A model generated the notes under the pieces. That model was not told the origin of the DNA. It made no database searches and saw only the letters and a list, made by a program, of their open reading frames with translations. From Waddliaceae bacterium (lineage in GTDB: Bacteria > Chlamydiota > Chlamydiia > Chlamydiales > SLOH01): DNA of 64,000 nt. Of this stretch, positions 1,929 to 63,900 are shown piece by piece. Numbering within the stretch: position 1 is the stretch's first letter; each line of letters begins with the position of its first letter. Both the position numbers and the translations under genes were made by a program. The DNA lies in NCBI GenBank assembly GCA_040880105.1, contig JBBDJA010000010.1:41317-105316 (forward strand), written 5' to 3'.

Positions 1929-2050
1929 AAATACTCAAGATCAGTCCAGATATAGACTAAAGATTGTAAATAAATTTCTAAATAATCTGATCGTCAAGAT
2001 TTTCCGCTCTCATCTTAAAATTAGAACGTTCACGGTTGTTTAAGGAAGGT

Positions 2051-2196
2051 CTGATTAACTCAGGTTAATTTAATTTTGCATGATTTTTTTCTAAAATTCG
2101 AAAAAAAAATCGAGCTTAACTGTTGGTAGTTAGGTGAGTGTATTTTATCGAATTCCCTCGAAAAAGGCACTGAATTTAATAAGTTCAGTTAATCAG
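2051..2196 (+). repeat. Copy E1 of a ~147-bp MITE/REP-like intergenic repeat with terminal inverted repeats
   Basis: Left end is ctgattaactcag; the right end reverse-complements to ctgattaactgaa. By hand alignment the interior matches the reverse complement of 38109-38256 along its whole length, e.g. ttaatttaattttgcatgatttttttctaaaattcgaa vs cgattaaattttgtatgaattttttctaaaatccgaa. Confidence 0.8.
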
Positions 2197-2280
2197 ATTT
2201 TCTTTATGCTTTAGGAACCTATGAATGACTCGGTTTCTATTAAACAAGAACTTCAGCACAAATCCCAAACAACAATCTAT

Positions 2281-2340
2281 CTTAACGTTTTGATAGTTAA
2301 GTGTGTACGTATATATCGAATACCCTAGAAAAAGGCGAAA
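2281..2340 (+). repeat. Partial copy (central/right part) of the same repeat
   Basis: cttaacgttttgatagttaagtgtgtacgtatatatcgaataccctagaaaaaggcg aligns with E1 interior cttaactgttggtagttaggtgagtgtattttatcgaattccctcgaaaaaggca. It is followed by the hairpin AAAAAGGCGA..TCGCCTTTTT (about 2329-2362). Confidence 0.65.
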
Positions 2341-2578
2341 AGTGCATCAACATCGCCTTTTTAGAGTTTCTTTTAGGTGGATAACTTCGATTTTTCACTC
2401 ATATGATAAAATACATAGAAATTCTCAAAAGGCGATATGTATTTATATGAGTTGTTCACTATTGACTTCCTATACCCCTAGAGACTAAAAAAAAACTGAT
2501 TTCTTGTGAATTCGGTTGAACAATAAATCTTTTAACGCTATATCTATTGACTTATGAAAGTACATATCTAAGGTCTAT

Positions 2579-5213: not shown

Positions 5214-5323
5214 TAAAAGTGACTCCCTTAGTAATATTCATATTAGAGCACATACAATATTTTTCACTAGCAATTTACGCATCTTTATCAGTAAGATGTG
5301 TCGTATATGCAACAGGAGAAAGT

Positions 5324-14377: not shown

Positions 14378-14809
14378 ATGGGAATTATGAATTTTGATAT
14401 GGTAGGACCAGCTCTTGCCCTTGGTTTAAGTGCCATTGGTAGCAGTATTGGTTGTGGTATTGCGGGAATGGCCTCTCATGGCGTTATGAGTCGCGTTGAA
14501 GAGGGACATGGTAAGTTTATCGGGATGGCAGCAGCTCCATCCTCACAGTCGATCTACGGCTTTATTTTAATGCTTCTAATGGCTCGAGCGATTACAGATG
14601 GTTCACTATCGCCTCTATCAGGAATTGCAATCGGTTTCTCTTCAGGCGCAGCGATTATGATTTCTGCTATTTACCAAGGAAAAGTTGCAGCTACAGGTAT
14701 CCAAGCCTCAGCAAAGCAACCGGCGATATTTGGTAAATGTTTTGCTGCAGTCGGTATTGTTGAATCGTTTGCTCTTTTTGCTTTCGTTTTTGCTTTACTC
14801 ATCATGTAG
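14378..14809 (+). CDS. atpK: V-type ATPase proteolipid subunit K
   Basis: 143 aa, Gly/Ala-rich, four-helix proteolipid pattern (GLSAIGSSIGCGIAG.., ..VGIVESFALFAFVFALLI). Last gene of the operon. Confidence 0.92.
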   Translation: MGIMNFDMVGPALALGLSAIGSSIGCGIAGMASHGVMSRVEEGHGKFIGMAAAPSSQSIYGFILMLLMARAITDGSLSPLSGIAIGFSSGAAIMISAIYQGKVAATGIQASAKQPAIFGKCFAAVGIVESFALFAFVFALLIM

Positions 14810-14836: not shown

Positions 14837-14916
14837 AAAAGCAGCCTTTAGCACTTCTGAAAAACTGGATCTTGAACATCCGAATTTCATTAGAAGTGGC
14901 TTCAGGCTGCTTTTTT
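14837..14916 (+). terminator. Large terminator-like hairpin after atpK
   Basis: AAAAGCAGCCT (14837-47) pairs with AGGCTGCTTTT (14904-14), and CACTTC (14852-57) pairs with GAAGTG (14893-98). A T6 run follows. The 35-nt loop is unusually large, so confidence is moderate. Confidence 0.45.
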
Positions 14917-15013
14917 ATTCTGGCAGAACGATTCGCTCTTGCCACCTAAGGTTTCATTAGAAGTGGCCTCAGGCTGCTTTTTTTATTCTGGCAAGACGAT
15001 TCGCTCTTGCCAC
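14885..15013. repeat. Tandem direct duplication, 2 copies, 67-bp period
   Basis: Copy 1 (14885-14945) and copy 2 (14952-15013) are tttcattagaagtggc(t/c)tcaggctgc-T6/T7-attctggca(ga/ag)acgattcgctcttgccac. They differ by 3 substitutions and 1 indel. Confidence 0.95.
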
Positions 15014-15402
15014 ATAGGATGTTCCCACGTGTTTAGTACTTGATCTTCGGCTAAAAGCTGAACTTTATAGGCTAGAATGCCACACAGACGAAAATAATCC
15101 TCATTACATAAGAGATAACTGTATGTTCCGCAGTCCCTTGTGATCGGGACGCTGAAATTAGATTGACTATGGTCTCTAAAGCGGATTTGAACATAAAGCG
15201 TATGCGGAAAGAGCCGTGCAGCACCTTTCGGCAAGGACCAGTTGATCAAGATTTTCTCGCCTTGAGGGGGACAGTTATATAGAGGGTCAGGTGTTCCTGT
15301 GATATAGCTTGCTAGGCTGTATTTAGTTAGATATTCTCTATTCACTTCAAGCTGCGGTGAGTGGCAGCTAGACAGAAAGAGAAGAAGTAAGAGACGTTTC
15401 AT
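14983..15402 (-). CDS. Putative lipoprotein (139 aa)
   Basis: MKRLLLLLFLSSC contains a lipobox-like L-S-S-C. The last 10 codons (WQERIVLPE*) lie in copy 2 of the 67-bp duplication. The start overlaps the aroG 3' end by 35 nt. Confidence 0.7.
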   Translation of the reverse strand: MKRLLLLLFLSSCHSPQLEVNREYLTKYSLASYITGTPDPLYNCPPQGEKILINWSLPKGAARLFPHTLYVQIRFRDHSQSNFSVPITRDCGTYSYLLCNEDYFRLCGILAYKVQLLAEDQVLNTWEHPMWQERIVLPE

Positions 15403-26807: not shown

Positions 26808-27982
26808 GAAATACAAATTCATTAGTTGGCGGGATATTACTTGTAGCAGGAACCTCTATTGGCGCCGGAATGCTTGGTCTTCCTGTTTTAACAGCTCAAA
26901 TCGGGTTTCTACCCACATGTCTTATTTATACAATCGCATGGGCCATTATGGCATCCACTGGACTGTTGCTTCTTGAAGTGACTCTTTGGTTCCAGGCACG
27001 CACGAATCTGGTTTCTATGGCTAAAGAGACACTTGGGTTTTGGGGTGCAGCCTTCGCATGGGTCATTTACTTATTTTTCTTCTACTTTTTGACTCTTGCC
27101 TATATCACAGGATGCGGAAAGTTTTTGACCTTTCTCTCGGATGGAGCGATCCCCGAGTGGTTATCTCCAGCTATTTTTGTGCTTCTTTTTTCCCCTTTTG
27201 TTATTTACGGGGCTCACTTGCTTAGTCAGGTGAATGCTGTGATGGTTGTTGGACTTATTGTGAGTTTTGTCTCATTTCTCGTGCTTGGGTTTTCTCACAT
27301 ACATCTCCCGATTTTAGAGACAGCCGATTGGTCTGCTGCGATATTTGCCCTTCCTATCTCCTTTGCAGCATTTGGGTTTCAAGGTGTGATACCAAGTCTT
27401 GGACATTATTTTAATTACAATAGGAAGAAAACCCAGACTGCAATCGTTTTAGGGTCGCTGATTCCACTTGTAATCTATACGATCTGGGAGGCCTTTATTT
27501 TGGGAATCGTCCCCTTAGATGGCCCCAACAGTTTAAGTGAAGCTCTCATTCAAGGAGAAGAGGTGGTTGCGCCCCTTGCTAAACAGCTTAAAAATTCAAA
27601 AGTTGCATATTTAGCGCAAGTTTTTGGCTTCTTTGCTCTTTCTACCTCCTTTTTTGGAGTGACTCTTGGATTAATGGACTTTCTCTCCGATGGGCTAAAA
27701 ATTCCAAAAAGGGGTGCATATCGCCTTCTTCTTGGCGCCTTAGTTTTCTTTCCGCCTGTATTAGTCGCTATGATAGACCCAAGATTATTTTTGACCGCTC
27801 TCGGTGTGGCTGGGGGATTTGGAGGCGCTCTACTTTTAGGCCTGTTGCCGATTCTTATGTTCTTTTCAGGAAAATACTATCTAAAGCTTAAGACAAAACT
27901 TCCTGTAGGGAAATTAGGTCTATTTTTGATTACAGTGATTGTTTTTATGGTTGTCGTGATTGAAATTCTACATCTAGTATAA
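26804..27982 (+). CDS. tyrP: Aromatic amino acid (Tyr/Trp) permease, HAAAP family
   Basis: ..GGILLVAGTSIGAGMLGLPV.. with about 11 TM helices. ATGA overlap with glmS. The glmM-glmS-tyrP order is the same as in Chlamydia. Confidence 0.88.
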   Translation: MRNTNSLVGGILLVAGTSIGAGMLGLPVLTAQIGFLPTCLIYTIAWAIMASTGLLLLEVTLWFQARTNLVSMAKETLGFWGAAFAWVIYLFFFYFLTLAYITGCGKFLTFLSDGAIPEWLSPAIFVLLFSPFVIYGAHLLSQVNAVMVVGLIVSFVSFLVLGFSHIHLPILETADWSAAIFALPISFAAFGFQGVIPSLGHYFNYNRKKTQTAIVLGSLIPLVIYTIWEAFILGIVPLDGPNSLSEALIQGEEVVAPLAKQLKNSKVAYLAQVFGFFALSTSFFGVTLGLMDFLSDGLKIPKRGAYRLLLGALVFFPPVLVAMIDPRLFLTALGVAGGFGGALLLGLLPILMFFSGKYYLKLKTKLPVGKLGLFLITVIVFMVVVIEILHLV

Positions 27983-27985
27983 AAA

Positions 27986-28104
27986 ATAGCCCACCCGTTA
28001 CACACGCTCTTCAGACTTATAACGAACTTTAATCAACTTGATAAACAAATCTCATTTTAAGTTCTAAGTTTTTTCCCAAAGAGCGTGTGAAACGGGCAGG
28101 CTAT
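27986..28104. repeat. Long imperfect inverted repeat (27-nt arms, ~67-nt spacer) between convergent tyrP and the Gly/Tyr/Arg-rich gene
   Basis: Left arm is atagcc cac CCGTTACACACGCTCTT (27986-28011). Right arm is AAGAGCGTGTGAAACGG gca ggctat (28079-28104). The core is 18 bp with 1 mismatch. Confidence 0.85.
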
Positions 28105-28691: not shown

Positions 28692-28913
28692 TTAATTAAC
28701 TCCCTTATTGTTAAAGGATTTAAATGTAGATTGATATATCTTTGTTTTATCAGACTTTGTGCGGTGAAATTTCAGGGTGCAACTGATAATTTAGCGGGGG
28801 AGGAGAGCGCCGAGCACTAACGCAAATGTATTGGAACGTGTACTTTTACGAGAGGTAAACATAACTGATTGATAATTAGTTAGGTGTGCCTAGGGTCGAT
28901 CACCGTTAAGACG
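28692..28913 (-). repeat. Possible degenerate/expanded copy (E4) of the 147-bp repeat
   Basis: The left end tttaattaactcccttattgttaaagg resembles ctgattaactcagattgttaaattg. The interior ataactgattgataattagttaggtgtg resembles E1 cttaactgttggtagttaggtgagtg. The right end tcgatcaccgttaagacg resembles tcgacccgagttaatcag. It carries about 70 extra bp. Hand alignment only. Confidence 0.35.
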
Positions 28914-29031
28914 TTTAGGATTTAAAGAGCAGACTTTTTGGTAGTTTTTTACGCTTAAAATTCAATCTACAAAAAGTTCTTACTTGCATAAAATCCATGT
29001 CATTGCTACTATTTTTTTATCAATTGACCAT

Positions 29032-29103
29032 TGGGGTGTCGCCAAGCGGTAAGGCAGCGGTTTTTGGTACCGCCATGCGGAGGTTCGAATCCTTCCACCC
29101 CAA
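29032..29103 (+). tRNA. tRNA-Gln (anticodon UUG)
   Basis: Acceptor TGGGGTG/CACCCCA, D-arm GCCAAGCGGTAAGGC, anticodon stem GCGGT/ACCGC with loop TTTTGGT (anticodon TTG), T-arm GGAGGTTCGAATCCTTC. Close to E. coli tRNA-Gln. CCA is not encoded. Confidence 0.93.
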
Positions 29104-29123
29104 ATTGACCAAGGGATAAATGC

Positions 29124-38004: not shown

Positions 38005-38108
38005 TTCTAATGTTTCCGTAAAGGGCTCTTGTCTTTAATCTATGGTTTATATTTTGTATTGGCATTATGGCGCAATAAAAACATGACCATATGAGTGTAT
38101 AGTAACCC

Positions 38109-38256
38109 CTGATTAACTCAGATTGTTAAATTGAGCACATCTTTCAAGGGAATTTAAGAAAAACGCACTTGATTAACCATCAAGTGGTTAATTTCGATTG
38201 CGTTTTCGGATTTTAGAAAAAATTCATACAAAATTTAATCGACCCGAGTTAATCAG
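38109..38256 (-). repeat. Copy E2 of the ~147-bp MITE/REP-like repeat (inverted relative to E1)
   Basis: Ends are ctgattaactcag and cgagttaatcag, matching 12 of 13 as an inverted repeat. There is an internal hairpin ATTAACCA tcaag TGGTTAAT. It lies in the 352-bp divergent spacer between the OMP gene and the 38357 gene. Confidence 0.8.
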
Positions 38257-38356
38257 AGGCTCCTATAGAAAAAAACCATTTGATTGAGATGAAAAAAGTT
38301 GAGTTTCTTATGAAAAAACTTTATAAATCCATTTTAGATATATTTGAGGAGTAAAG

Positions 38357-38930: not shown

Positions 38931-40127
38931 ATTAAAAATCATAAACGAATTTTACTTACGGCAGGACGACTTCCAATTACATTGGAATTAGCAAGGCAGC
39001 TAGCAAAGGCTGGGCATACTGTATTTGTGACAGACTGTCTTCCTATGTATGTCTCTAAGTTTTCAAATGCTGTTAAAAAGAGCTTCACTGTTTCAGACCC
39101 ACGCAAATTGCCGGACAAATACATACAGGAACACTTGGAGTTAGTTCGAAAATACGACATCGATTTCTTGCTCCCGATTTGGGAAGATGTCTTATATTTT
39201 TCTCAGGTCAAAGAGCAGTTTTTACCTCGATGCGAAGTTTTTTGCGATAACTTTCAAACGCTCTACAAGCTCCATCATAAGTGGCATTTTATGCAAATGC
39301 TTGAAAAATGGGGGATACCCACTCCTCCATCTTTTCTTGTTCGAAATCCAGAAGAGGTAAAAAATGTGGATATCGATAAACCATTTGCCTTGAAACCGTG
39401 TCTTTCCCGAGCGTCTCAAAATGTCTATAAAATCGATGATAAAAATGAACCGATAGACATCTCTGTTAACTGCGGCGATTGGATTGCCCAAGAATGGCTT
39501 CGCGGAGATAAATACTGTACCTTGAGCGTTTGTCATGAAGGGAACCTTTCTGCTCACTCCGTTTATCCGGTGACATTTTCTATCGATAAGAGCTCGTGTT
39601 TAAGTTTTGTCTCAGTAGAACATAAGAAAATTTATGAATGGGTCAAGGACTTCGTTAAAAAGGCAAATTTTACAGGCTTAATCGCATTTGACTTCATCGA
39701 ACTAGAAGATGGTCGTCTATATCCGATCGAATGTAATCCTCGAGGAACGAGTGGGCTGCATCTATTCGCCTCTACTCCAGAATTCCCGAGCGCCCTTTTT
39801 AAAAGTCCCTCTAATTGCCTCTTTCCTAAGGAACAGAAAAAGCGACAAATTGCTGTTGGCATGCTGATGTATGGCTGGAGAGTGAAAGGTCAACATTTTT
39901 TAAAAGAATTTTTAAGCTCCAAAGATGTCTTATTTTCCGTTAAGGACCCTCTTCCATCTCTTTTAGAGCCGTTTCTTTTGCTGCAAGTTCTTTTGCTTGC
40001 TCTTCGGCAGAAAAAGAACTTACCCGCCTTCTACACTCACGACTTAGATTGGGAGCCGGGAATAAGCGACGCAACTGATGTTCCTGTTGAAAATCCACTT
40101 GTAGACCAACCAAAGAGCTTTGTATGA
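38931..40127 (+). CDS. ATP-grasp ligase; proposed non-canonical ATT start (the track starts at TTG 38982)
   Basis: Has the ATP-grasp signature ..YPIECNPRGTSG... The frame is open from 38910, and the upstream in-frame codons encode IKNHKRILLTAGRLPIT, a beta1/Gly-loop typical of the pre-ATP-grasp domain. There is no ATG, GTG or TTG before 38982. AGAGG lies 5 nt upstream of ATT 38931. Confidence 0.6.
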   Translation: MKNHKRILLTAGRLPITLELARQLAKAGHTVFVTDCLPMYVSKFSNAVKKSFTVSDPRKLPDKYIQEHLELVRKYDIDFLLPIWEDVLYFSQVKEQFLPRCEVFCDNFQTLYKLHHKWHFMQMLEKWGIPTPPSFLVRNPEEVKNVDIDKPFALKPCLSRASQNVYKIDDKNEPIDISVNCGDWIAQEWLRGDKYCTLSVCHEGNLSAHSVYPVTFSIDKSSCLSFVSVEHKKIYEWVKDFVKKANFTGLIAFDFIELEDGRLYPIECNPRGTSGLHLFASTPEFPSALFKSPSNCLFPKEQKKRQIAVGMLMYGWRVKGQHFLKEFLSSKDVLFSVKDPLPSLLEPFLLLQVLLLALRQKKNLPAFYTHDLDWEPGISDATDVPVENPLVDQPKSFV

Positions 40128-41479
40128 CAACACAGTCTCCTTTTGAATGGCAAAGACATCCGAAGGCTGAACAATTAATTATGAACGCGCTTGAATCTGC
40201 TTGCGAGCAAAATTCAATGATTGAGAGCTTAAGGGAAGATCTTCTCAATTTTACAAGTACGAGATTATTTGATTGGGCCGATCATATTACACTTGGTTAT
40301 TCTCCCCAATTGGAACAAGATTTAATCGAATTTGGATTTGAAGCGGTGCATGCGTCTGCTGATTATCGTGTGTTTGCCCATCCGGGAGCGCAGCTTCCCC
40401 GGGTCGTTGTGTATGATCATGATGAACCTGTGAGAGGAGTGGCGATTACTGTAGACAGTATTGCGGATTTCTTGATGGTCCGCGGGATCCATGCCATTAT
40501 TGAAGGAATCCCATATAGCGGCTATCGACGCTCGAGGGTTTCAGATGAAAATGGTGTTGAACTTTTAATTGTTGAGCGGCGCGGCACTCAGACGCTCGAA
40601 CCTACCTACCCGGACTCCGATTATGTTGAAAAGTATCTGGATGCGCTTGAAAAATGGCAAACGCGTCCAAGATCACTTGACGATGAAGATCTTGCAATGG
40701 AGCAAACCTTAACAATTGCAGAGGATCTTGTTAGAACACTTGGCAAAGACTTGGCGGCATGGGTAGTAATGGAGGGAGAGCGTAAATATTGGCAATCAAG
40801 GAATTTTGCAGCTCAGCTCCAAAAGAATCGCCAAGATAAGCTCGGAATGGGATGGGCCAACCACGATCATCATACTTTTCGCTCGTCCAGACGACAATTC
40901 ACTCACCTCATTCGACTTCTTGAAATGCTCGGTTTTCACTGCCGAGAGAGATACTACGCCGGACAACAAGGGGGATGGGGAGCGCAAATAATGGAAAACT
41001 CCCGATGCGGGCTTGTATGTTTTTGTGACCTGGATCTCTCTCCCGAAGAGGTTGAGATTGATTTTGCTCATCACCCACTTCCTGAGCTTTCAAAACTAGC
41101 AACGGTGGGTCTGTGGTGTGAATTACATGGAGACTCTATACTAAATGCCGGAATGCATCATCTAGAGGCGCAATTTATGTTTAGCGAACTTAAAGATGAT
41201 TTAGATCATTTAGGGGTTGCTATGATGGAACCTTTCAGTGACTTCCCTTACCTTAAACAGGCATTTACGTCCGGAGAACTTTGGCAAGTCGCTCCGAGCC
41301 GAGTCAATCGTTTGCTCCAGCAAGGAAAAATTACGCATCAAGAAGCTGATAAGTTTATCTCTTACGGCGCTGTGGGCAGCCATTTGGAGAACCTACAAAG
41401 GCGCGAGGGATACAAGGGATTTAATCAGAAAAATGTCAGTTATATCATTAAAAAGACAGATCCAAGAACTTTAGAGTAG
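40124..41479 (+). CDS. 451-aa candidate metalloenzyme, VOC-fold / DUF1338 (HglS/YdcJ)-like (tentative)
   Basis: ATGA overlap with the ATP-grasp gene. Contains His clusters GWANHDHHTFRS and MHHLEAQF. The C-terminal ..GSHLENLQRREGYKGFNQKNVSYI.. is reminiscent of the DUF1338 C-terminal motif. The ORF is solid; the family call is from memory only. Confidence 0.5.
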   Translation: MTTQSPFEWQRHPKAEQLIMNALESACEQNSMIESLREDLLNFTSTRLFDWADHITLGYSPQLEQDLIEFGFEAVHASADYRVFAHPGAQLPRVVVYDHDEPVRGVAITVDSIADFLMVRGIHAIIEGIPYSGYRRSRVSDENGVELLIVERRGTQTLEPTYPDSDYVEKYLDALEKWQTRPRSLDDEDLAMEQTLTIAEDLVRTLGKDLAAWVVMEGERKYWQSRNFAAQLQKNRQDKLGMGWANHDHHTFRSSRRQFTHLIRLLEMLGFHCRERYYAGQQGGWGAQIMENSRCGLVCFCDLDLSPEEVEIDFAHHPLPELSKLATVGLWCELHGDSILNAGMHHLEAQFMFSELKDDLDHLGVAMMEPFSDFPYLKQAFTSGELWQVAPSRVNRLLQQGKITHQEADKFISYGAVGSHLENLQRREGYKGFNQKNVSYIIKKTDPRTLE

Positions 41480-41547
41480 CTTACTTGAAAACCGCATGGA
41501 CTCTCTAATAGTGACAGTTGCTATCTCAATCGACTACAAGAAACTTT

Positions 41548-41695
41548 AGAATAAGTCAGATTGCAAGGTTTAGCCGCATATTACTGAAATTTAAAAACTC
41601 ACTCGTTCAATTTACAAGTGGTAACGCTCGATTACTTTTGCTAAAAATACGGGAAAAATTCACAAAAAAAAATTAGACAGACCCGCCATATTTAG
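41548..41695 (-). repeat. Copy E3 of the ~147-bp repeat (same orientation as E2, more degenerate)
   Basis: tcagattgcaaggtttagc.., ..gaaatttaaaaactcact.., ..caagtggtaacgctcgattacttttg.. and ..ggaaaaattcacaaaaaaaaattagacagacccg align in order with E2. Same length (148 bp), roughly 65-70% identity by eye, with eroded ends. Confidence 0.6.
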
Positions 41696-41747
41696 AGTTT
41701 ATTCAATTAATTCTTTCAAACTTTCAGCTGCAGAGCGTTCCTATCCC

Positions 41748-60907: not shown

Positions 60908-63900
60908 ATGAGTGTTAGTTTATCTAATGTTGATTACAATAAATATTTAACTCAGTTTTTGACAGTAATAGGCGAGACTGAGGAGTACAAAATCGATGAG
61001 ATTGATTGTGCATTTTTGGAGAAGAGACAGGAGGTCGCGTTAAGATCCGGAGAGGTGGCAATCAGGTGCTTTCATGTTCTTTTTCAGTATGTCAATCATT
61101 TCAAAAAAAATGCGGAAAGAACAGTTCAGTGTCAAAAAGTCAGTGAGATTAGTTTAAATGATTTTGAAAAACTCAAATATCTAATCAATAGCACTCGTCA
61201 AAGTTGTATACAAATGATTTGGAATAGATTTTTTAGTAATCCCAATGAATTGGATTACAGACCCAAATTGGTGAAGATTTGGATTAGAGTCTTAGCGAGT
61301 AGAAAATGGAGTGATGTTCAAAGAGAAGAGATTTTTGATCTGTTGATTAGCCGTGGATTTATTAATGTTGTTGATAGAAAAGGTACAACGCCTCTTCACC
61401 AAGCTTGTCAAGAGGGAGATACAGAAGTTGTACATAAGTTAATTCATGCAAAAGCCTCTTTATACCCAATCAACTGCATGGGAATGACACCTCTACACCT
61501 TGCCGTTAGTAATGGTCATAAGAAAGTGGTGGATATATTAATTAACGCAGGTATGCAAGTCGATATCCCTTTAGCCCCTTTTTCCCCTCTGTATTTAGCG
61601 ATTCAGAAGGGGTATACTGAAATCGCAAAAACCTTGATTCAGGCAGGTGCACGTATTAACTTCTTTTCAGAAGGTATATCAGCTCTCCACCTTGCAGTAA
61701 TTAATGACAATCTCGAACTCGTAATTACCTTAATAAACGCCGGCGCGAATGTTAATCTCTATACACTTCTTAGCTTCACTCCCCTTTATATGGCAGCTCT
61801 TAATGGGAATGCTGAAATTGTTAATGTATTGATTCAAGCAGGTGCCGGTATCGACTTAGGCGGCGGCGGATTTAGCCCCCTATATTGCGCTGCTCTTTGC
61901 GGAAATAAAGAGGTTGTTGATGTCTTAATCCGAGCAAACGTAAATGTGAACTTGTCCACTAAAAACGGTCATACACCCCTTTATGTTGCTGCTATGAATG
62001 GGAATATAGACTTGGTTAACGCCTTAATTAAAGCGGGAGCCCATATAGACCATGAGAGATTCGGTAAGTTATCTCCTTATTATATTGCTGTTAAAAATGG
62101 ACAAGTTGAAGTCTTAAAAGCCTTGATGCATGCGGGAGATAATCTCAATGAAAAATCGAGTGAGAAATGGACACAGCTATTATGTATTGCCGCATATAAA
62201 GGTCATCTTCCAGTTGTGAATACTTTATTAGAAGCGGGAGCTCATATAAACGATGTTTTGGTTACTGGATTGTTCGCTCTTTATCTTGCTGCTGAGTATG
62301 GACATGTTGAAGTGTTGGTCGCTTTAATAAATGCGGGGGCTAATGTAAATGCAAGAAAGAAGGATGGGGCGACACCGCTATGTGTTGCCGCTTGCAACGG
62401 TCATCTTTCAATTGTCACTACTTTAATAAAAGCGGGAGCTGTTGTAAATGTGTGTGATAAATGGACACCACTTCATCTTGCTGCTCAAAATGGCCACCAT
62501 GAAGTAGTAGATGTGTTAATTAATGCAGGCGTCTGTGTTAACGGAATTGATAAATGGACACCACTTCATCGTGCGGCTGAAAATGGCCACTATCAAGTTG
62601 TAGAAGTCTTAATTAATGGAGGCGCGCATCTCAATGGATTTGAAGGGTGGACACCGCTACATCTTTCGGCTCTTTACGGTCATCTTGAAGTTGTAAAATT
62701 GTTATTAAAGGCAGGTGCTAAAATCGATACAAGAGGCTATGAGGGAGTCACCCCATATGATTTAGCAGTTCATAGTCGTAATAAGGAGATTATTGAGTTT
62801 ATATTATCAGTACACACTGCGACATATTTTGAAAAGCTTCATTGTTGGATGTTGTATTATAATGTAGATGAAGCTGATCAGGTCTTAATCAATAAAAAAG
62901 ATTTAGCAGAATTTATAGTTGATGGGGAACACAAACGCCTTTCTCTTTGCTCCGGAAGAGGTCCAAGTGAGTACAATGGAAGTATAGAAATAGACCAAGA
63001 AATAAAAGAAGATCTTGAGTGGAGCGTGGATCTATTTCAGCCGACAAGCCTTCTTCCCCTTTTAGCTGAATTGAGTGCTCAAGACAGTGTTGATGCGTTA
63101 GGTTCAGAAGACGATTCTGTTTCTATATCTCCGGATATGTTACTTGAAGAAATACAAAATGTCTCTCAAGTAAAGATGACCCAAGGCATACGAGATCGTA
63201 TCATTCAACTGTCAAGCGAAAGGACTGAAGGTGGGATTCCACTTAGATCCGTTGTTATCAATTATTTAAGAAAGGGAATGTATATTCTGCAACAAGAGGA
63301 TGAACAGAAAATTGAGGGTTTTTTCGCTTCTTTACAAGAAATAATCAACCCCTCATGCAAGGAAGGTGTCTACAACCGAATCGCGGAGTTTCTTGCTCCT
63401 TTTTTAAACAATGATAGTATTATTGGGCAAAAACTGCATGAATTGAAGCGCACAGCTTGCCTAACTGCCCTTTTTGAAATTCTTAATGACCAAAAGTATG
63501 ATGATTTGTTTAATGAAATTGCCAATCGATCGCTGTTTGAAATCAATTCGATTCAGATAAAAAATGCATATATAAATCAAACCATTCACTTTCTGCCGGC
63601 AGTCTCGATATATCTAGGAAATCGACTGGGATTTTCAAAATACGAAGGTGAGAGAGATTACTTTGCGACAAAGATATATGAAGATTTTTTTTATGTGTTA
63701 AATGAAGAATTTTTTGATCTTGTCAAAGAGAAGCTAAGCCAACCGGAAGTTGTTAAAGAGCTTGTTATTTTTGCAAAACAGACCATCGAATCCCAACTCA
63801 ATGCTCTTGAAGCTGAAATGATAAAAGGAAAAAAAACAGTTGATGATTTTAACCGTTTTAAAAGTCAATTCACTCAGGCGATAAAAAAGTACCTTAGAGG

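Follow-up and report, generated by a model that had tools for sequence, protein, structure and literature searches.

What are the short repeats that recur between genes in this 64,000-nucleotide stretch of a Waddliaceae genome (the window), and do they serve the host? The original prediction described a dispersed intergenic family of about 147 bp with 13-bp terminal inverted repeats and labeled it MITE/REP-like. It allowed that the ATTAAC and GTTAAT motifs in the copies could equally be an operator array. It also called for a search of other genomes, for fold predictions, and for a cognate transposase with matching ends. We conclude, with a probability of about 0.85, that the repeats are old, decaying copies of an IS5-type MITE (a non-autonomous transposable element) that was mobilized in trans by an IS5-family transposase.

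The repeat family in the window is real, and it comprises four full-length copies, E1, E1b, E2, and E3 (Table 1). The element is about 161 bp long and noncoding. The copies measure 158 to 164 bp, which agrees with the view that they are too small to encode a transposase. As predicted, E1 and E2 belong to one dispersed family. The Smith-Waterman score of E1 against the reverse complement of E2 was 70, compared with 9.7 ± 1.6 for shuffles (z = 36), and the end-to-end alignment proposed for the pair was upheld at 74% identity. A repeat finder reported the two copies as inverted arms, one pair of 78 nt at 81% (2043-2120 and 38187-38264) and a second pair of 54 nt at 76% (2143-2196 and 38109-38162). 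An independent HMM, built from 8 copies in 3 other Chlamydiae MAGs and containing no window sequence, recovered both E1 and E2 at full length. Both copies had been located correctly, but their ends lie 7 nt farther outward than first placed. Likewise, the terminal inverted repeats are present but are about 20 nt long, not 13. Ends resembling CTGATTAACTCAG with at most two mismatches occur 7 times in the window, against 1.9 expected, and 4 of the 7 are the ends of E1 and E2.

When E1 and E2 were slid across the whole window, just two further places exceeded the background (maximum, 15 to 17). One, on the minus strand at 41521-41740, scored 34 (with E2) and 22 and corresponds to E3. The other, on the plus strand at 2241-2460, scored 26 and 38 and corresponds to E1b. 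The original prediction had listed a 60-bp fragment at 2281-2340. This piece is indeed related (z = 15.5 by itself in Smith-Waterman comparison with shuffles), but it is the best-kept part of E1b, a fourth full-length copy. E1b stands in tandem with E1, in the same direction and after a 10-nt spacer, and the two are 68% identical over 163 columns. E3 is 65% identical to E2, with a Smith-Waterman z of 14.5 against the E2 reverse complement, and in the sliding alignment over the whole window it ranked third for E2 and fifth for E1. The sliding-window and alignment scores indicate that E3 is a genuine copy (score of 34 against a background of 15). However, it is degenerate and has the orientation of E2, not that of E1 as first assigned. 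It was missed by the HMM from the other Chlamydiae copies. Two more suggested members, an expanded copy at 28692-28913 and an end fragment at 5221-5254, were not substantiated: each gave z < 2 and an nhmmer E of >= 7 and was absent from the top sliding-window matches. By eye, the former resembles the central hairpin over just about 27 nt. It lies just upstream of a tRNA-Gln gene (anticodon TTG, 29031-29104), the sole RNA gene found in the window.

Table 1. Copies of the repeat in the window, with their ends and flanking sequences
Feature	Position	Strand	Description	Evidence or match
E1	2044-2203	+	Full-length copy, 160 bp	Independent HMM, E = 3.6e-5, full length
E1 left inverted repeat	2044-2063		GGAAGGTCTGATTAACTCAG	
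E1 right inverted repeat	2184-2203		Outer heptamer eroded: AGAAAAT vs expected GGANNNN	
E1 flanks	2040-2043 and 2204-2207		TTAA and TTAT; imperfect 4-bp duplication	3/4
E1b	~2214-2371	+	Degenerate full-length copy; right end badly eroded, boundary approximate	nhmmer E = 7e-4, model positions 2-135
E1b left end			GGAACCTATGAATGACTCGG	
E1b possible flanks	2210-2213 and 2372-2375		TTTA and TTTA	
E2	38102-38263	-	Full-length copy, 162 bp, inverted vs E1	Independent HMM, E = 1.3e-7
E2 right inverted repeat			GGAGCCTCTGATTAACTCGG (read on - strand)	
E2 left inverted repeat			GTAACCCCTGATTAACTCAG	
E2 target-site duplication	38098-38101 and 38264-38267		TATA	Perfect
E2 central hairpin	38166-38186		T-run follows on - strand	
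E3	~41540-41703	-	Heavily decayed copy, orientation of E2; boundaries approximate	
E3 ends			Recognizable solely as GAAACTTTAGAATAAGTCAG and ATAAACTCTAAATATGGCGG	
E3 flanks			ACAA and TCAA	3/4

The window also contains repeats of other kinds. At 14885-15016, two tandem units of about 67 nt, 92 to 97% identical, lie between convergent ORFs (14378-14809 on the plus strand and 14983-15402 on the minus strand), and each unit has a hairpin followed by a T-run. A 26-nt inverted repeat at 27986-28104, 88% complementary and with 67 nt between its arms, directly follows an ORF that ends at 27982. A coding region at 61980-62727 contains a run of diverged repeats of 99 nt (33 aa), which follow the pattern ...LL.AGA... 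and look ankyrin-like.

The ends of the element became clear from copies in other genomes, where the recommended search turned up many. We scanned one genome per species for CTGATTAACT, a gap of 110 to 140 nt, and AGTTAATCAG, and obtained 92 loci. After unrelated matches had been removed, mostly short-repeat arrays of Bacteroidota, there remained 68 elements with complementary outer heptamers. The terminal inverted repeat of about 20 nt has the form GGA-N4-CTGATTAACT; that is, it extends 7 nt beyond the core on both sides, as in GGAGGTG...CACCTCC, GTACCCG...TGGGTAC, and GGAACCT...AGGTTCC. These outer heptamers are complementary at 5 to 7 of their 7 positions across the 68 elements, and their sequence differs by lineage. 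Some lineages have the terminus GTA rather than GGA. In the window, 4 of 7 positions of the outer heptamers still pair in E1, as in E2, and the core is perfect in both. The invariance of CTGATTAACT among the retrieved copies is circular, because the search pattern fixes it. A 151-bp MITE on a Xanthomonas perforans plasmid (CP077786.1; L093:2505-2655) has the variant core GGAAGCTCTGAACAACTCC between CTAA/CTAA flanks, which shows that the core is not invariant beyond the search pattern. This Xanthomonas MITE is found at 11 places on the one plasmid, and it adjoins an unrelated IS5-family insertion sequence with the ends GGGTCGCCCCTGAAAAACCCC.

Insertion has left its mark beside the elements. The 4-bp flanks were identical in 38 of the 68 elements, compared with 4.9 in controls whose left and right flanks were randomly re-paired. 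At 5 nt, one element had identical flanks; at 6 nt or more, none did. The base composition at the four target positions was T/C, T, A, and A/G, which corresponds to YTAR. Among the window copies, E2 alone has a perfect duplication, and the copies are individually weak in this respect.

Relatives of the host provide a second line of evidence. The gene downstream of E2 has a homologue with 80% amino-acid identity on contigs of the closest relative that come from other samples (L216 and L217). The two genes flanking E2 can be aligned there, as can the conserved stretches of the DNA between them, but these contigs lack about 165 nt where E2 would be, which equals the element and its duplication together. 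On another contig of the same relative (L229), the region orthologous to that of E3 is shorter by 194 nt and resembles none of the copies. The intergenic DNA of the relative is too diverged for the junction to be read base by base, so the relative may instead have undergone a precise deletion at these sites. In Parachlamydiales CSMAG_2015, five sampled copies are 91 to 97% identical and occupy different loci with different duplications, so the element has recently amplified in some chlamydial lineages. In Chlamydiales P_S1_42, five copies are found in one 8-kb stretch. A tandem pair in that genome (L005:3125-3450) has the layout GTAA-copy-CTAA-copy-CTAA, with a shared 4-nt CTAA between the copies. 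This layout suggests re-insertion into a YTAR site regenerated at the edge of the element, and the pair resembles the E1/E1b pair of the window. The duplications, the presence and absence at orthologous loci, the recent amplification, and the many copies elsewhere support the reading of the repeat as a MITE. This part of the original label therefore stands. The REP-like part does not, given the size, the terminal inverted repeats, and the duplications.

The fold predictions that had been proposed gave a consistent picture. Intact copies from seven lineages are predicted to form a single hairpin that spans the whole element, with z values of -7.5 to -15 relative to dinucleotide shuffles. Erosion shows in the window copies, whose values are -4.2 to -4.9 for E1, -4.6 to -6.3 for E2, and about 0 for E3. 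These predicted values would fit neutral decay, as for decaying relics. In the genome-scan sample, in which the pattern fixes the core and bounds the length and the sequences are related by descent within lineages, 36 elements are exactly 161 nt long (from Clostridia, Zetaproteobacteria, Chlamydiae, Coriobacteriales, and Spirochaetes). We took ten nonredundant 161-nt elements without gaps and paired each position i with position 162-i. Standard pairs made up 69%, compared with 55% when partners were dealt among sequences and 36 to 47% in slid registers. Changes had occurred on both sides in 52 of 72 pairs, and interior identity across phyla was 24 to 45%. When the pattern was relaxed, the same loci yielded extra copies, among which core-to-core lengths of 147 nt or 137 nt again predominated. 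A MAFFT alignment of 29 copies, made from sequence only, yielded the terminal stem alone in RNAalifold, because the interiors are not alignable. Apart from the tRNA, Rfam searches over the window found no family for the element at gathering or permissive thresholds; the best permissive match over E1, to a eukaryotic snoRNA at 21.6 bits against a threshold of 40, is noise.

Some copies have an additional internal feature. In Zetaproteobacteria, Gammaproteobacteria, and Coriobacteriales, CAAGGCG, a stem, and CAACG surround the central hairpin in an oriented, non-palindromic arrangement (L003:736-896, L006:5015-5173, L012:3645-3805, and L040:6707-6877). The predicted folds show the same asymmetric internal loops there, although the surrounding stem sequences differ. 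The motif is absent from the chlamydial and clostridial copies.

Which transposase moved the element? Its IS5-like ends, its duplication at YTAR, and the existence of known IS5-family MITEs lead us to file it as an IS5-type MITE, and this family-level assignment appears to be the best available on end similarity, duplication length, and target motif. We retrieved the IS5 sequence from the E. coli K-12 genome, in which its annotation reads "IS5-like element IS5 family transposase". Its ends are GGAAGGTGCGAACAAG and GGAAGGTGCGAATAAG, with the combined form GGAAGGTGCGAA(C/T)AAG, and it is flanked by CTAA/CTAA. The left end of E1, GGAAGGTCTGATTAAC, matches the right inverted repeat of IS5, GGAAGGTGCGAATAAG, at 12 of 16 positions. 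The first seven are among them, and both begin with GGAAGGT. IS5-family subgroups other than the IS5 group also produce duplications of 2 to 4 bp. IS5 itself duplicates 4 bp at YTAR targets (PMC5009759), as the element does. However, E. coli IS5 is 1195 bp long and encodes a 326-aa transposase, whereas the window element has 161 bp and is noncoding. The inner inverted repeats also differ (CTGATTAACT in the element and GCGAATAAG in IS5). IS5 is not a foldback palindrome, unlike the element, and our searches found no insertion sequence with the exact ends of the MITE.

We looked for a parent in several places. No IS5-like transposase was found in the window, for which the original prediction had stated that no transposase is present, or in 1.7 Mb of fetched loci by tblastn with Xanthomonas IS5-family and E. 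coli IS5 transposases. Pairs of cores 300 to 3500 bp apart in all loci were just neighboring MITEs and included no autonomous element, and Pfam scans of the ORFs beside the chlamydial copies detected no transposase. A scan of viral contigs for GGANNNNCTGATTAACTC gave 120 loci, none of which had a partner end; they are therefore chance matches. A metagenome scan with the end of the rumen lineage gave 7 loci, four of them further MITEs and three unrelated single matches, and no parent. BLAST searches of plasmids, for which the queries were the inverted repeat and three lineage MITEs, returned just another MITE family, the one on the Xanthomonas plasmid near the unrelated insertion sequence. A 17-nt match in Vibrio and Alteromonas plasmids was rejected, since it lies inside coding DNA. 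The inverted-repeat sequence matched only primers and unrelated sequences in the literature. The cognate transposase with matching ends that the original prediction suggested looking for, which for the IS5 family would be a DDE enzyme (DUF772 plus DDE_Tnp_1), was thus not found in the window, the 1.7 Mb of loci, the viral contigs, the one lineage-specific metagenome scan, or the plasmids. Because these searches found neither an autonomous element nor an IS5-like transposase, we infer mobilization by an IS5-family enzyme from three features: the end sequences, how long the duplication is, and the motif of the target.

We propose the following mechanism. The element is a near-complete palindrome that would fold back as one long hairpin. 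The outer heptamer, which starts with GG (GGA-N4), is the predicted cleavage point, and the inner core CTGATTAACT is presumed to be the site where the transposase binds. The element would be non-autonomous and would depend on a DDE transposase of the IS5 family that is encoded elsewhere in the genome or has since been lost. This enzyme would bind both ends and then excise or copy the element. Insertion at 5'-YTAR-3' through a 4-bp staggered cut would produce the 4-bp duplication. The window copies are probably functionless now.

The gene context bears on whether the copies might instead regulate their neighbors. E1 and E1b lie 3' of rpoC and in the same direction as rpoC. E2 sits centrally between two divergent genes, with about 95 nt separating it from the start codon on either side. 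Both genes next to E3 are on the plus strand. The host is an uncultured chlamydia; a 451-aa protein encoded at 40124-41479 has chlamydial homologues and is identical to an NCBI entry from a Waddliaceae MAG. The operator-array proposal holds that the ATTAAC/GTTAAT half-sites bind a regulator of neighboring envelope or secreted-protein genes. Each of E1 and E2 has four or five such motifs, E2 sits in a divergent promoter region, and the gene to its left has, by eye, a signal-peptide-like start. We nevertheless consider an operator array very improbable. The terminal motifs are the core of the inverted repeat, which recurs with 4-bp duplications in at least seven phyla near unrelated genes, a distribution that speaks against the proposal. 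The internal motifs vary even among chlamydial copies: in other Chlamydiae the central hairpin reads GCTAACC...GGTTAGC, and the internal ATTAAC motifs are a lineage-specific version. The relative keeps the E2 gene pair without the element, and outside the copies the motif is no commoner in the window than expected by chance. The association with envelope genes in a shared orientation describes two copies, E1 and E2, but E3, which is oppositely oriented between its plus-strand neighbors, does not follow it. The copies have no consistent relation to neighboring genes, and the relative lacks both E2 and E3.

A different regulatory proposal accepts the MITE origin. The former MITEs would now act as regulatory hairpins of the host at rpoC and in the divergent promoter region around E2, for example as transcription terminators or insulators, as targets of RNase III, or as genes for small RNAs. 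Read in the orientation of the family (the minus strand), the central hairpin of E2 and E3 precedes a T-run and has a terminator-like score; E1 and E1b are co-oriented with rpoC and lie just downstream of it. Long hairpin transcripts would be expected from the predicted fold, and across phyla the hairpin and the length have been kept while the interior sequence turns over. However, rpoC has its own strong terminator-like hairpin upstream of E1 (1896-1922), 17 nt past the stop codon, with a 12-bp stem that includes 7 G-C pairs and is followed by TTTTTCAAAT. Most of the pairing is gone from the window copies (z of -4 to -6, and about 0 for E3), which argues against selection on the fold there. 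In the closest relative, the same genes flank sites that have no E2 or E3. The side of E3 that looks like a terminator points away from both neighbors, and no Rfam family matches. We therefore consider such a host function improbable, though less so than an operator array. Least probable of all, and close to negligible, is a mobile element of another kind, either a REP/BIME palindrome spread by a RAYT (IS200/IS605-like) or a TA-duplicating IS630/mariner MITE such as Correia or RUP. The Correia element duplicates TA and has known regulatory effects. The window copies are likewise intergenic, palindromic, and AT-rich, and the center of their target is TA. However, their duplication is 4 bp long, and its variable first and last bases agree between the two sides, so it is not a 2-bp TA duplication. 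The ends are IS5-like. Moreover, the element has 160 bp and 20-nt terminal inverted repeats, while REP elements are described as palindromes of 20 to 40 bp that carry a conserved GTAG/CGTC end and lack duplications (PMC3733652).

The IS5-type MITE of the window has relatives far beyond the Chlamydiae. At least seven phyla contain related elements, most of them exactly 161 bp long and with many copies per genome. Clostridia RGIG3704 and Mariprofundaceae 131-447 bin 046, like the two chlamydial genomes CSMAG_2015 and P_S1_42, are rich in copies. Their hosts include Chlamydiota, Clostridia, Zeta- and Gammaproteobacteria, Coriobacteriales, Spirochaetota, and Fibrobacterota. In this pattern-selected sample, the elements of different phyla share the core CTGATTAACT, the length (161 bp in five phyla), and the end-to-end hairpin. 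It is conceivable, but on balance doubtful, that the window copies are part of one ancient foldback-MITE superfamily that extends across bacterial phyla. If they were, the fold and the length would be under selection, either as a transposition substrate (hairpin or cruciform) or for a host-level function. In that case, the lasting unit that passes from phylum to phylum would be the MITE itself and not an insertion sequence. The recurrence of core, length, and foldback in many phyla with no known parent would be the less ordinary aspect of the family, although the sample does not establish it.

Several observations concern the hosts. Termite-gut MAGs with family members belong to Coriobacteriales, Spirochaetaceae, Fibrimonadaceae, and Parendomicrobium (L012, L029, L042, L046, L004, L075, and L064). 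In one hydrothermal sample (131-447), both Mariprofundaceae (L003 and others) and Piscirickettsiaceae (L084) carry members. Hosts of different phyla in the same habitat hint at spread within communities, though the sequences are not close. The Bacteroidota matches of the scan were arrays of short repeats of the ...CTGAATAA... type and not the MITE. Those of Chitinophagaceae, Pinibacter, and Saprospiraceae (L009, L065, L083, and L076) are inverted arrays in which ...CTGATTAACTGAATAACTGAATAACTGA... faces ...TCAGTTATTCAGTTATTCAGTTAATCAG, with spacers of about 60 to 100 nt. We set them aside as short tandem repeats, a different kind of repeat.

Similar elements are known in other bacteria. The IS5-family MITEs BrickBuilt, MITEPgRS (both from Porphyromonas gingivalis), and ATR (from Neisseria meningitidis) are, like the present element, non-autonomous and multi-copy, contain no transposase remnant, and have inverted repeats of an IS5-family type (PMC4596501), which in our case are the IS5-like ends. 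However, their ends are of the GAGACC type and unrelated to GGA-N4-CTGATTAACT, and each has a candidate parent in the same species (PMC4596501), whereas we found none for the present element, which is spread over many phyla. The duplications of BrickBuilt vary in length and sequence (PMC4596501), while those of the element are fixed at 4 bp. Correia of Neisseria and QMITE1 and QMITE2 of Coxiella burnetii resemble the element in their size of about 100 to 200 bp, their long predicted hairpin transcripts, and the truncated and decayed copies beside full ones (PMC10969869), although their sequences are unrelated to it. The QMITEs, too, are present in an obligate intracellular bacterium, but QMITE2 has direct repeats of 7 to 9 bp (PMC10969869) in place of the 4 bp seen here.

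The element is thus ordinary in kind, an IS5-type MITE present here as decaying relics. The literature that could be searched held no account of chlamydial MITEs, and the family may not have been described before. Its identification explains about 650 bp of puzzling intergenic DNA in the window, and regulatory sites should not be inferred from the repeated motifs. Environmental chlamydiae carry an IS5-type MITE that has recently amplified in some lineages. The same core, 161-bp length, and hairpin in at least seven phyla, within a pattern-selected sample, may help in studying how non-autonomous elements persist and cross between phyla.
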